Shown: positions 1,509 to 10,121 of the stretch, in pieces
Layout: each line of letters starts with the position of its first letter
Position numbering within the stretch: position 1 is the first letter of the stretch
Virus record (IMG/VR): IMGVR_UViG_2695420701_000015
Source: a virus
Taxonomy: Duplodnaviria > Heunggongvirae > Uroviricota > Caudoviricetes
Direction: 5' to 3' (one strand)
DNA: 10,133 bases
Position numbers and translations under genes: made by a program
The notes under the pieces: generated by a model
Databases searched by the model: none
The model's input: only the letters and a program-made list of their open reading frames with translations
Told to the model about the DNA's origin: nothing

Positions 1509-2171
1509 ATGTCAATTGAGCATATTTTAATCGGGAAGCATCATGGGGGTTCTGATTACTGGAGAACTCCATTTTTGTTATTTAAGAACTTACACCGTGA
1601 ATTTATTTTCAGTCTAGATGGTGCTGCAACTGAGCATGACACGCTGTTACCACGATTCACCGATGATATAAGCCGTCAATCATGGGTTAGTGAAAAGGTC
1701 TTCTGTAACCCGCCGTACAGCGATATTCCGTCGTTCCTCTTAAAAGCGTCTGAAGCGGATTTAGTAGCTTTCCTGATACCGCATAGAGCCAACACCAGCT
1801 ACTGGCTTAGGCACATTTACAGCAATAACCACTGTCATGAAATCCGTATTCTTCATCGTGCAGTTAAATACCTTCCACCAGCAGGGCATAACAGGCTTAC
1901 TATTAGGTCACCGTTTCCAAGTGCAGTCGTTGTTTTTAAAAAAGAACCACGTAAGCATGAAATTACACAGATGGTTTGCTGTGCTGATACATTGCTACCG
2001 TTAACCATCATTAACCGTGGTGGACTAAGAGGAAGACCCACCATTTACCCACCTGAGACGCTCGACAGCTTCATAAAACTATACAGGCAAGGAAAACCCA
2101 TTAAGTACATTGCAGATGCTCTCAGAATGCCTCTGAGCACGTCATACAGGATTGCTCAAAGGTTGAGCTAA
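1509..2171 (+). CDS. DNA N6-adenine methyltransferase, phage Dam-like family, with C-terminal HTH-like extension (220 aa)
   Basis: Motifs DYWRTP, LDGAA and FCNPPYSD (NPPY catalytic motif of amino-methyltransferases) in the order typical of the phage Dam family. C-terminal about 45 aa (KPIKYIADALRMPLSTSYRIAQRL) resembles a resolvase-type HTH. No adjacent restriction endonuclease gene is visible. Confidence 0.75.
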   Translation: MSIEHILIGKHHGGSDYWRTPFLLFKNLHREFIFSLDGAATEHDTLLPRFTDDISRQSWVSEKVFCNPPYSDIPSFLLKASEADLVAFLIPHRANTSYWLRHIYSNNHCHEIRILHRAVKYLPPAGHNRLTIRSPFPSAVVVFKKEPRKHEITQMVCCADTLLPLTIINRGGLRGRPTIYPPETLDSFIKLYRQGKPIKYIADALRMPLSTSYRIAQRLS

Positions 2172-2924: not shown

Positions 2925-3138
2925 TGACAAAATGTCACCCGTGTTAGAGTTAGATAAGTTATTAGATAAAACATTAGATAATAATATTACAGATAAGAAT
3001 AAAGAGACTGGACTTAATGATGATATTAAAGAAGATGACTTTCTTTCTTTGGATGAATTAAATGATTTTCTCTCTATGAATGAATCTGACCTTGAAGTAA
3101 GCTCTAAAAAGGGTGATGCTGCCAACTTACTGATTTAG
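2887..3138 (+). pseudogene. Acidic C-terminal continuation of the rep-like gene in a shifted frame, 3'-truncated by IS1
   Basis: ORF 2887-3138 re-reads the second 15-bp repeat as SDKMS, the same peptide ORF 2535-2924 reads from the first repeat. Its last 9 codons (GDAANLLI-stop) are encoded by the IS1 left inverted repeat, so the native 3' end is missing. Confidence 0.35.
2901..2937 (+). repeat. Two exact 15-bp direct repeats AGTGACAAAATGTCA, 22-bp period, each containing the palindrome TGACA-N3-TGTCA
   Basis: Read directly: copies at 2901-2915 and 2923-2937. The 7-bp spacers differ (TGGGGGT versus CCCGTGT). Confidence 0.9.
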
Positions 3139-3450
3139 TGTATGATGGTGTTTTTGAGGTGCTCCAGTGGCTTCTGTTTCTATCAGCTGTCCCTCCTGTT
3201 CAGCTACTGACGGGGTGGTGCGTAACGGCAAAAGCACTGCCGGACATCAGCGCTATCTCTGCTCTCACTGCCGTAAAACATGGCAACTGCACGCATTATG
3301 GGCGTTGGCCTCAACACGATTTTACGTCACTTAAAAAACTCAGGCCGCAGTCGGTAACCTCGCGCATACAGCCGGGCAGTGACGTCATCGTCTGCGCGGA
3401 AATGGACGAACAGTGGGGCTATGTCGGGGCTAAATCGCGCCAGCGCTGGC
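3112..3450. mobile_element. IS1 remnant: intact left terminal inverted repeat, insA with internal deletion, start of insB; right part absent
   Basis: GGTGATGCTGCCAACTTACTGAT at 3112-3134 matches the IS1 left inverted repeat as I recall it. The following sequence encodes the InsA N-terminus ([41 protein letters not shown]). About 85 bp appear to be missing after 3291 relative to canonical IS1 (from memory). IS1-like sequence stops at 3450. The segment is visibly more GC-rich than its flanks. Confidence 0.8.
3167..3334 (+). pseudogene. insA: insA remnant (GTG start), frameshifted by the internal deletion
   Basis: Translation from GTG at 3167 gives the InsA N-terminus and then diverges after ...KTWQL into [14 protein letters not shown]-stop. 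The InsA C-terminal peptide [21 protein letters not shown] is encoded in a different frame. Confidence 0.7.
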
Positions 3451-3451
3451 A

Positions 3452-3684
3452 TAGGAATCTCTAGAGCAACTTATTACAGACTTGCTAAATAAGTTACTGA
3501 ATAGTTACATGGATGTAGCTGATATTTGGCTTTTTTGCCAAGGGGGTCACATAGCTGGTGTGACGGGTACTTAGCAGCTACAGACATCTGTCAGATATTT
3601 TTGAAGATTCGGGGAAGATGAGATTCAAAGAGGGCTAGTCATTTTTTATAAAAATTTTCAGATTCTGAAAAGTTACTGTACAGA
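3452..3684 (+). repeat. Copy C of the module: last about 13 codons of the recombinase gene plus downstream region
   Basis: TAGGAATCTCTAGAGCAACTTATTACAGACTTGCTAAATAA and the following about 190 bp match 549-587 and 1165-1356. It begins abruptly inside IS1-derived sequence. Confidence 0.85.
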
Positions 3685-4630
3685 TTTTGCACAATCCTAC
3701 CAAACCTCATAGTTGATTCGATTAGAAGCTAATCTCATAGAAAGCTCTGTAGCGAGTTTTAACCCCATTTTTAGGGGTAACCTATAGGGATGTACTAACC
3801 ACCTTAAAATAAAGGGGTAAAATCGCTTAGAATGCGTTACAGAGCGTCTGAGAAGCCATATTCACAGATTTTACTAAAACCTCAGACTTCTAAGTAGTCT
3901 TTTAACAGGAGGGGTTCCCCTATGGTCACATATCCCCTCTCTTTCCACTAAGTAAGCCTTAGCAGCACCTAAGCAACAATTGACTAACAGATTCGGTAGA
4001 GTCTATCTCATAGGTCAACTTCATAAACTCAGAGCTAAGTTACCTTGAAAGATTCTACCAAGAACTACACAGGTGTTATTTAGTCTGACTGTGAAGGGAT
4101 ATTTAACGGGAGAAGAGATACGATATAACCCGAAGGGAGAGTATCATCTTAACAATTATCTTAAGAATAAAACTGAAAAACTCTTAACAGATAACCACCT
4201 AGAAAGAAGGGAACGATAAGACCAGAGGTAGTGACCTGTTAAACAGGCTGTTTCAAAGTCTCTTAAAAGTCTGTTAAGTAAGGTCATGTGAACAATCTTA
4301 CCATTTTGTCAATGCTTTTGTCTTTGACCTAAATCAATAAAATGTATCGTTTGATATGCTTTTAAACAAAATAGCTAAAAAATCTTTTTTTAGAGGGGCG
4401 CTTCGCTTGGGGTCACTATGAATGATTTTTCTCTCGCTAAGAGAGCGCTTACAGAGGTCTTTCAAATCTCAATAGCCAGCCGAGGAACACAGGAAACCGA
4501 GGGAAGAAAAACTATTGTGATTACCTTGAACAAGGTCTGTAAAGGTCGTTTAAGAGGTCGGTTAAGAAAGGAGCTTCCCTCTCTGGGGTTATCGCTCTTC
4601 TCCCGATTAGTGGGGCGGTTAAGGGGGCTT

Positions 4631-4812
4631 GAAGTTATCTGTGAAGGTACTGGACAGTCTTATATATTGGGTGATTACAACTCGTTGAAAAATAAGCATT
4701 TTTAGAAGTTACTGTTAAGGTTGCAGAGTTGTCTGTGAAGAGACTTGTCAGTTCTCTATATATGGCTAATTACAACTTATTGAAAAATAAGAACTTTTAG
4801 AAATTACTGTCA
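4631..4812. repeat. Two imperfect tandem direct repeats, about 94-bp period
   Basis: TCTGTGAAG...TTGAAAAATAAG(C/A)A(T/C)TTTTAGAA(G/A)TTACTGT occurs twice, starting at 4638 and 4732, roughly 80 percent identical by eye. Confidence 0.8.
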
Positions 4813-8843: not shown

Positions 8844-10121
8844 ATGGCACAATTTAAAGTTGATGATTTTCTGATTGAGTTAAGTTTTAACTCTCAGAAA
8901 GTTTTAAAAGGCTTGGAAAAAGCCGAGAAACAAACGATGCAGGTAGCATCACGAATTGAGAAGCGATTGAATAAGTCGTTTAGAGTTAATCCTACGCCTT
9001 TAAATGATTCTCTCAAACTAATGGAAAGAAATGTCGATAAAACTGTTTCCAAGATTGAGCAGCGTCTTAAAAACACTAGAGCGTTTAAGATTAAAACTGA
9101 AATTGAGGATACTTTAAAGCCACTTAGACAACCAAGACAGCCACGAATTAGCGGAAGCAGAGCAATCACAGCAGCTTACTCAGCGAATATGAGCAAGCTT
9201 CGTGACTTTAATCCTATGCTTGAGAAGTATTTTAAAAGCCAGTATTACAGCTTAAGCAGTAAATCCAAGACACTTGGAAACGAAACTTTTAATCGTGAGT
9301 TAGCAAAGTTAAATCAGTCTCTTCGTGAAACACTTTCTAAGTTTAACAAGACCACCAGCAAAAATAATCACAGTGAAAATGCTTCAAATAGTCTGGATGT
9401 ATTAGCTACGAGTGCAATCAAAGCAGGTACAGCCATTTATAGTTTTCAGACAGCCTTAGAAGCTTACAGGCGGATTATGGAGGTTGGTCTGAAAAAAGAA
9501 GCATCACAACGAGCGGCACAATTCGTTTTAGGTGATGAAGGTGCTAAACGAGCTACAGAATTTGTTAAGAATCTTGCTGATAGTAGTGGTGTAGACCAGA
9601 TTGAAACATTAAGCAGTTTTGCTAAGTTTTCCGCTGGTGCTGGTGATATGAATGCAGACCAGAAAGAATCCTTATTTTCTAATGTGATTGGTACATCCAG
9701 ATTAATGGGGCTAAGCACCGATGAAATTAACGGGATTTTAAAAGCTTTCGAGCAGATGGCATCTAAAGGAAAGATTCAGGCTGAAGAGCTACGCGGTCAA
9801 TTAGGTGACAGAATGGCAGGTGCTTTTCAGTTATTTGCCAGAAGTCTTGGGATGACTACGGAAGAATTAGACAAGGCCATGAAAGACGGTAAGGTTCTTT
9901 CTAAAGATGTTCTTCCTAAAGTATCCGCTGAAATGGGAAGGATGATTGATAAAGCTGGTGGATGGGAAAAGATTATTAACTCTACTCAGACGCAGTTAGG
10001 CCGCTTAAGTAATTCATGGAATAATAATCTGGCCTTAATGTTCGATGGTTCACAGGAAGGTTTAACAGACTTTACAAGGTCACTGACTAATTTACTTAAT
10101 TCACTAAATAGCTGCGCTTAA
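8844..10121 (+). CDS. Tape-measure-domain protein, 425 aa
   Basis: AAAGAGGTG RBS 10 nt upstream. Residues about 290-380 (GILKAFEQMASKGKIQAEELRGQLGDRMAGAFQLFARSLGMTTEELDKAMKDGKVLSKDVLPKVSAEMGR) match the conserved phage tail tape-measure N-terminal-type domain pattern as I recall it. Predicted helical N-terminal half. Complete ORF with TAA at 10119-10121. Confidence 0.8.
   Translation: MAQFKVDDFLIELSFNSQKVLKGLEKAEKQTMQVASRIEKRLNKSFRVNPTPLNDSLKLMERNVDKTVSKIEQRLKNTRAFKIKTEIEDTLKPLRQPRQPRISGSRAITAAYSANMSKLRDFNPMLEKYFKSQYYSLSSKSKTLGNETFNRELAKLNQSLRETLSKFNKTTSKNNHSENASNSLDVLATSAIKAGTAIYSFQTALEAYRRIMEVGLKKEASQRAAQFVLGDEGAKRATEFVKNLADSSGVDQIETLSSFAKFSAGAGDMNADQKESLFSNVIGTSRLMGLSTDEINGILKAFEQMASKGKIQAEELRGQLGDRMAGAFQLFARSLGMTTEELDKAMKDGKVLSKDVLPKVSAEMGRMIDKAGGWEKIINSTQTQLGRLSNSWNNNLALMFDGSQEGLTDFTRSLTNLLNSLNSCA

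Follow-up and report, generated by a model that had tools for sequence, protein, structure and literature searches.

The DNA analysed here, called the window throughout, is a 10,133-nucleotide stretch from the Caudoviricetes virus record IMGVR_UViG_2695420701_000015, one strand read 5' to 3'. Toward one end of the window, a small serine recombinase gene is followed by a gene predicted to encode an N6-adenine methyltransferase that ends in a helix-turn-helix (HTH) domain of the serine-recombinase type. The features of this part of the window are as follows.

36 to 587, + strand: small serine recombinase of the resolvase/invertase type, 183 aa, which marks the left end of the element (Pfam Resolvase at 145 bits, plus HTH_7)
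1308 to 1355, + strand: conserved box downstream of the small recombinase gene, with CTGTACAGA at its end; found by self-blast and repeated at 3636-3683
1362 to 1386, no strand assigned: 25-bp near-palindrome TACAGATA-N9-TATCTGTA with an AT-rich centre; found by repeat search and specific to the type-A arm
1386 to 1508, + strand: region upstream of the methyltransferase gene, with phage homology, paired GATATC sites at 1409-1428 and a TTGTCA box at 1472-1477
1509 to 2171, + strand: methyltransferase-HTH fusion gene from the list of open reading frames (ORFs), 220 aa, ATG start, stop codon included
1551 to 2018, + strand: predicted PF05869 N6-adenine methyltransferase core, residues ~15-170 (Pfam, PHROGs, PADLOC, Foldseek and structural model)
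1707 to 1718, + strand: catalytic motif IV, NPPY (Asn-Pro-Pro-Tyr), residues 67-70, read from the sequence
2019 to 2051, + strand: flexible linker and Gly-Arg-Pro (GRP) arm, residues 171-181, with GRP at residues 175-177 (nucleotides 2031-2039)
2052 to 2165, + strand: predicted three-helix HTH of the serine-recombinase type, residues 182-219 (HTH_7, a PDB profile and models)

In the window, the methyltransferase gene is flanked upstream by the small recombinase, which holds the same position in the E. coli loci L002, L003 and L004, and downstream by a truncated replication-like HTH_36 protein and small ORFs without a family match. No nuclease or restriction gene adjoins it, either in the window or in the PGAP annotation of the four E. 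coli loci (L001-L004). The 90-aa HNH gene, at a distance of 4 kb, also occurs in elements without the methyltransferase. The leader of the gene is an AT-rich run with no Shine-Dalgarno-like sequence before the ATG at 1509 (1490-1508 read), and a simple promoter scan of the upstream region found none. The choice of ATG 1509 as the start comes down to conservation and the need to include the D-x-W-x-T-P motif.

Homologues that, like the encoded protein, are 220 aa long share 85-95% identity with it and are named 'DNA N-6-adenine-methyltransferase'. In a full-length scan, residues 15-145 match the Pfam Dam model PF05869 (56.5 bits, E=3.5e-15; the cutoff is 28.1 bits); T1 Dam, for comparison, reaches 236.5 bits with this model. 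PHROGs assigns the protein to phrog_111 (DNA methyltransferase), and PADLOC classes it as an orphan methyltransferase (oMTase). The NPPY motif and the conserved F-x-x-D-x-A-A and D-x-W-x-T-P segments are intact, and N67, P68, P69, F34, D37, A39 and A40 are nearly invariant in family alignments A1 and A4. The phage_N6A_met model TIGR01712 covers residues 15-100 only and reaches 40.5 bits against an equivalog cutoff of 97.05; on that score it does not count as an equivalog of the classical phage N6A enzyme. At E<=1, the Pfam scan of the fusion protein returned no match to PF02086 (MethyltransfD12), the family of E. coli Dam, T4 Dam and DpnM. No methyltransferase profile spans the full protein, and the Dam profile ends by about residue 170. 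An AlphaFold2 model (mean pLDDT 84) has a Rossmann-type core and adds two strands at residues 153-169, beyond the Pfam match. Foldseek searches with the core model returned HsdM, M.TaqI and PCIF1 at E of about 3e-4 to 5e-3. These matches are weak because no PF05869 member has a solved structure; the modelled core fold resembles, and appears related to, those of N6-adenine methyltransferases.

The linker that follows the core is predicted to be disordered and is modelled at low confidence (residues 171-180, pLDDT down to 61), and its GRP motif is retained in most members of the fused clade, with two exceptions, GRQ or GKP. Helices at residues 182-193, 198-204 and 209-219 are predicted in both models. 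In the full-length scan, HTH_7 (PF02796) matches residues 175-215 at E=1.5e-4 and 22.3 bits, just under the cutoff of 23.8; scanned alone, the tail reaches 25.9 bits, above the cutoff. The same profile matches 8/8 fused-clade tails (best E=1.1e-7), and the Winslowiella homologue scores 41.1 bits. When a profile of the tails was compared with the PDB, the first match was the Sin resolvase DNA-binding domain (E=1e-6, the alignment starting at the GRP arm), with the Tn3 and gamma-delta resolvases next; a direct PDB sequence search with the whole protein gave a marginal HTH match only. The structural neighbours of the tail alone are the DNA-binding domains of Sin, gamma-delta, Tn3 and Hin (TM 0.64-0.72), at E-values that are not significant, which is to be expected for 50 residues. 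Tail and HTH of the neighbouring small recombinase are 33% identical over 43 aa, and their GRP arms align. On the profile and model evidence, the tail is a genuine HTH_7 domain with a minor-groove GRP arm, and it is predicted to bind DNA. The E-helix, the dimerisation helix of serine recombinases, is absent from the fusion protein, and the tail would therefore more likely bind a single half-site.

An earlier note, made from the letters of this DNA alone, had described an orphan Dam-like N6-adenine methyltransferase with no adjacent restriction endonuclease gene and a resolvase-type HTH in its last 45 or so residues. The orphan status agrees with the PF05869 match, the PADLOC class and the absence of a restriction gene from the window and the four annotated loci, and the tail is borne out by HTH_7, the Sin profile and the three predicted helices. 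'Dam-like' is apt for the phage T1 Dam family (PF05869) and does not extend to the E. coli Dam family (PF02086). A domain scan detected the Dam family in the whole protein and the HTH, at a score above its cutoff, once the tail was scanned alone. The note had also suggested that the tail could target the nearby palindromes, for which the phage homology of the upstream region described below offers a competing explanation, and that the enzyme may have an anti-restriction or regulatory role. Because the tail does match an HTH profile and no single-domain methyltransferase profile covers the full length, the fusion is confirmed: by profile and model, the gene encodes an intact N6-adenine methyltransferase of the T1 Dam family joined to a serine-recombinase DNA-binding domain.

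This architecture is as unusual as the earlier note had supposed. A family search over 1.84 billion cluster representatives yielded 2489 members, and in only about 8 of these clusters does the alignment run through residue 219. Among the best 150 of the 2489 representatives, 144 have the Dam match and 6 have HTH_7. A search with a narrower homologue alignment found three loci only. Fused homologues occur in Escherichia, Shigella, Winslowiella, Erwinia and Pseudocitrobacter. Members of the fused clade are 35-60% identical and conserve the linker and tail across at least four Enterobacterales genera, with the pattern CADTLL...RGG.xGRPTxY..LD..I.L...G....IA..L.xPxST.YRI.QRL. Given that linker and tail are conserved at this level of identity, the fusion is old and maintained and is no recent accident. 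The gene is present in 214 of 5426 complete E. coli genomes, full-length in 211 and chromosomal in all, where PGAP labels it only 'DNA N-6-adenine-methyltransferase'. A few precomputed Pfam records already carry both domains, and a full-length fused homologue is absent from the phage records searched. We found no description of the fusion in a literature search that barely covered this architecture. Methyltransferases with extra DNA-binding domains are already known; the particular combination of a T1 Dam core with HTH_7 is one that we have not seen described.

Both parts of the gene are constrained. Among three E. coli copies, pN/pS of the core is 0.23-0.32 and the tail is nearly invariant, with 0-1 amino-acid change. 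Synonymous divergence of the window copy from L001 and L002 is higher in the core (pS 0.25-0.32) than in the tail (0.03-0.11), and residues ~88-108 occur in two distinct versions among the E. coli copies. Both domains are under purifying selection, and the gene is a mosaic.

The carrier is an integrative island of ~12 kb, with 40% GC, bounded by serine recombinases. Its genes are, in order, the small serine recombinase, the optional methyltransferase, replication-like genes, HNH, small unknowns, the tape measure gene, a Dit-like gene and a 506-aa large serine recombinase, the last on the strand opposite to the other island genes. Capsid and terminase genes were not found in the ~12-kb island. 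Complete genomes place its insertion sites at yciI/tonB, mdtG or wrbA, and 538 of the 5426 complete E. coli genomes (roughly 10%) contain part of it. Delimited as a gap free of GATC, the element occupies the following positions.

L001, 17690 to 28418
L002, 18804 to 31654
L003, 8882 to 20727
L004, 8769 to 18765

The methyltransferase gene is carried by L001-L003 and is missing from L004 and from the second arm of the window. L003 has a paralogous methyltransferase-HTH gene in a different slot (10963-11631; 222 aa; 49-64% identical), with a Shine-Dalgarno sequence and a GTG start. Homologues in Winslowiella and Pseudocitrobacter adjoin tyrosine integrases, and the Winslowiella copy lies 2 kb from a SieB exclusion gene. 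Since there are elements with and without the gene, an alternative slot and homologues at the side of integrases, the gene is optional, mobile accessory cargo. The window's counterpart of the paralogue slot (~4400-4420) is occupied by a 95-aa ORF (4418-4705) that is unrelated to the paralogue and matches no family.

The window is itself a composite of two element variants, in which the methyltransferase gene is intact but lies in a rearranged arm. A tandem duplication (197-776 / 774-1329, 94% identical) comprises the 3' part of the small recombinase and the region downstream of it. The replication-like gene, which encodes 322 aa in L002, is cut down to 129 aa by an IS1 remnant with an internal deletion (3112-3450). 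Next comes a third copy of the 3' end of the recombinase gene (3452-3684), followed by a second arm, of a different type and without the methyltransferase. The stretch at 3685-4420 (L003 10230-10960), ~730 bp with no ORF longer than 48 aa, is conserved between elements. It holds TCTCTTAAAAG and CTGTTAAGTA motifs, like the upstream region of the methyltransferase and the repeats of phage region 800-1040; it has no match in Rfam, and it could be an origin or a regulatory region. An 84-bp tandem repeat (4633-4715 / 4727-4810, 81% identical) straddles the end of the 95-aa ORF. Scans for Rfam families and tRNAs found nothing in the window, and a high-identity search of phage and plasmid collections with the whole window returned the IS1 fragment only.

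The element is devoid of GATC. The window contains 0 GATC sites, against 31 +/- 5 in shuffles and 36 under a Markov model; other 4-base palindromes are far less avoided, with CTAG, and CGCG in L003, moderately low. In four other strains, too, a gap free of GATC matches the extent of the element, in which only inserted IS elements contain the site. Escherichia phage humlepung (MN850564.1), a Felix O1-like phage of 85,311 bp and 39% GC, likewise has 0 GATC over 85 kb, against 162 expected in the first 50 kb. No comparable depletion is seen in phage T1 (235 GATC sites vs 302), the source of the prototype PF05869 enzyme. The tail genes of the element also point to this group of phages. Its Dit-like protein shares 77.6% amino-acid identity with a humlepung protein (90% DNA identity over 529 bp), encoded by the gene directly after the phage tape measure gene, and its tape measure protein aligns end to end, at 28% identity, with those of Felix O1-like myoviruses. 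The tape measure and Dit-like pair lies at these positions.

L003, 15907 to 18924
Window, 8844 to 10121 (start of the tape measure gene)
MN850564.1, 27081 to 30088

The element resembles a so far undescribed satellite, or parasite, of virulent Felix O1-like phages; from these sequence relationships we infer both its satellite status and its induction by a helper. In the open-access literature we found no description of the element, of GATC avoidance in satellites or Felix O1-like phages, or of Felix O1-like satellites.

The region before the methyltransferase gene adds to this connection. Its 170 bp contain the 25-bp palindrome, three GATATC sites and repeated TCTTAAAAG and CTGTTAAGTA motifs. 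Homology to the phage covers 1386-1480, a stretch that takes in the paired GATATC sites and a ACCTTGTCAAG box; its counterpart in the Felix O1-like phage is a unique intergenic region (MN850564.1 8360-8490; 86% over 58 bp by blastn, 77% in an extended alignment), and 1386-1508 is nearly identical in L001 and L002. The strongest palindrome, at 1362-1386, is just outside the phage alignment and is conserved in L001 and L002, save one arm substitution in L001. The 1308-1355 box is 84-86% identical (blastn) to MN850564.1 724-772, near the left end of the phage record, and a four-way alignment shows the element variants diverging at the end of this box. The two phage-like stretches, 1308-1355 and 1386-1480, may be mimics of a helper promoter, packaging signal or regulator site. 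Because 1386-1480 is homologous to a phage intergenic region, the upstream repeats are perhaps a borrowed helper-phage control region. The simplest reading would be that the methyltransferase lies behind this borrowed region and is expressed with the helper genes; the upstream sequences need not be targets of the tail. Half-site TACAGATA occurs 21 times in the window vs 11 expected, a weak excess inflated by the window's own duplications, and GATATC is not enriched in the phage (36 vs 39). Upstream of the distant homologues in Erwinia, Winslowiella and Pseudocitrobacter there is no shared palindrome or conserved operator.

The characterised members of PF05869 that we traced are T1 Dam, M.Btr190III and M.Phi93DAM. 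T1 Dam and M.Btr190III methylate GATC, the latter with marked off-target activity (PMC4996451), and M.Phi93DAM, from Lactococcus phage phi93, methylates GATC and protects against DpnII (PMC4190342). The core of the fusion protein is 28% identical to T1 Dam and 33% identical to phi93-type enzymes. As identity is only 28-33%, GATC specificity is transferable in neither direction. Two other enzymes were considered and set aside: the non-specific enzyme Hia5 does not belong to this family but is related to E. coli, T4 and DpnM Dam (PMC3299994), and M.EcoGIX, a single-strand-specific enzyme from a plasmid, is of no relevance here.

A Dam-family enzyme on GATC-free DNA presents a paradox. E. coli as a rule has its own Dam, which methylates GATC. 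Given the low identity, the GATC-free DNA and the host Dam, a plain GATC-protective role makes little sense. A GATC enzyme would be without sites on the element and would duplicate the host Dam, and an argument from protection therefore needs a changed specificity. Homologues in other genera are surrounded by DNA with normal GATC content.

We propose that the gene encodes a solitary, active N6-adenine methyltransferase built from a small T1 Dam-type core, a flexible linker and a recombinase DNA-binding module. The HTH would anchor or direct the core on DNA and add a sequence preference that the minimal core lacks. Upon infection by a Felix O1-like phage, the gene would be switched on together with the helper-phage genes. 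The enzyme would then mark element DNA, and possibly helper DNA, at sites other than GATC, most likely to shield that DNA from restriction once it enters the next host. We give this reading, of an active orphan enzyme that is directed by its HTH, expressed on helper infection and aimed at non-GATC sites, about an even chance of being correct. One could also envision a helper-induced satellite methyltransferase whose HTH holds a low-specificity core at defined sites on satellite or helper, such as the common control region. The local m6A marks, on two genomes that are both GATC-free, would be a natural counterpart of targeted DamID and could be used in satellite-helper conflict or in the distinction of self from non-self; we regard this as quite improbable.

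The sequences upstream of the gene allow for other roles of the tail. It could be an autoregulatory or operator-binding module that acts on the upstream palindromes (TACAGATA-N9-TATCTGTA and the paired GATATC) and controls the methyltransferase and the replication-like gene that follows. There is a precedent in the N-terminal HTH of M.SsoII-type methyltransferases, which binds an operator in its own promoter and mediates autoregulation. Palindromes and repeats are densely clustered 40-170 bp upstream, and L001 and L002 conserve this cluster along with the gene. The 25-bp palindrome is organised like a serine-recombinase-type site: its outer bases are conserved, and its centre is AT-rich, as would suit the GRP arm. 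However, neither the type-B paralogue in L003 nor the homologues in Erwinia, Winslowiella and Pseudocitrobacter have a comparable upstream palindrome. Moreover, most of the cluster, from 1386 on, copies a phage intergenic region and so probably serves a phage or host factor, and the neighbouring small recombinase, with an HTH_7 of its own, is an equally good candidate binder. We consider autoregulation unlikely. Alternatively, the tail could recruit the enzyme to sites used by the element's own serine recombinases (recombination or attachment sites), where methylation or occupancy would modulate excision, integration or resolution. The homology of the tail to serine-recombinase DNA-binding domains, including that of the neighbour, would fit such a role, as would the placement of the gene directly after the small recombinase and the divergence of the variants exactly at the CTGTACAG palindrome. 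Yet 33% identity is no more than HTH_7 domains commonly share, and the two recognition helices are different (RATYYR vs LSTSYR). Homologues in other genera lie beside tyrosine integrases and not serine recombinases, and the gene, being optional, is dispensable for element mobility. A role at recombination sites seems very improbable to us.

Other explanations concern the activity of the core. The enzyme could retain GATC specificity, or a relaxed GATC-like specificity, and act in trans while the element, being site-free, is exempt. Its target would be host DNA, as GATC sites occur nowhere else in the cell; alternatively, it could act on near-cognate sites in the helper. In favor of this view, all three traced family members methylate GATC, one of them with strong off-target activity, and the element and the Felix O1-like phage are both wholly without GATC. 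What the element would gain is not apparent, however, as E. coli Dam already methylates GATC. Elements without the gene (L004) are equally GATC-free, and GATC loss is thus independent of the methyltransferase gene, while homologues elsewhere reside in DNA with normal GATC content. Methylation of GATC in trans is likewise an unlikely account. Finally, the gene could be decaying cargo without a present function, as the window copy is in a rearranged, IS1-truncated arm and has no evident ribosome-binding site. With 211 of the 214 E. coli copies full-length, pN/pS well below 1, catalytic motifs intact and the gene as GATC-free as the remainder of the element, decay is extremely unlikely.

If the tail does direct the enzyme, the fusion would show, as a simple natural case, how a plug-in DNA-binding domain can give a minimal adenine methyltransferase new targets. 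It would then inform the evolution of methyltransferase specificity and provide tools for targeted methylation with a compact scaffold. The setting, in which the island and the phages to which it is tied are both GATC-free, may matter more than the protein. Felix O1-like phages serve in Salmonella typing and biocontrol, and the island is found in about one in ten complete E. coli genomes.

Several known systems resemble parts of this one. Like the fusion core, T1 Dam, M.Phi93DAM and M.Btr190III have a small core with a single clear NPPY, are encoded by phages or prophages and have no restriction partner. Unlike the fusion protein, which has an HTH tail and resides on a GATC-free element, they have no HTH tail and target GATC. 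The Sin, gamma-delta, Tn3 and Hin recombinases share with the fusion tail a DNA-binding domain made of a GRP arm and a three-helix HTH; in serine recombinases this domain is joined to a recombinase catalytic domain, whereas here it is joined to a methyltransferase.

Methyltransferases with an extra DNA-binding module include M.SsoII and M.Ecl18kI, with an N-terminal HTH, and CcrM and CamA, with C-terminal DNA-binding domains. These four enzymes have in common with the fusion protein a catalytic domain and an added DNA-binding module. They belong to other catalytic families and use another kind of DNA-binding domain, and the HTH of M.SsoII is N-terminal and part of a restriction-modification system.

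The element as a whole is broadly similar, in its gene content, to the PLE satellites of Vibrio cholerae, whose lytic helper is phage ICP1. Both are small chromosomal islands with a large serine recombinase, without capsid or terminase genes, and with sequence ties to a virulent myovirus. The element is distinguished from the PLE by its tape measure and Dit-like tail genes and by a second, small serine recombinase.
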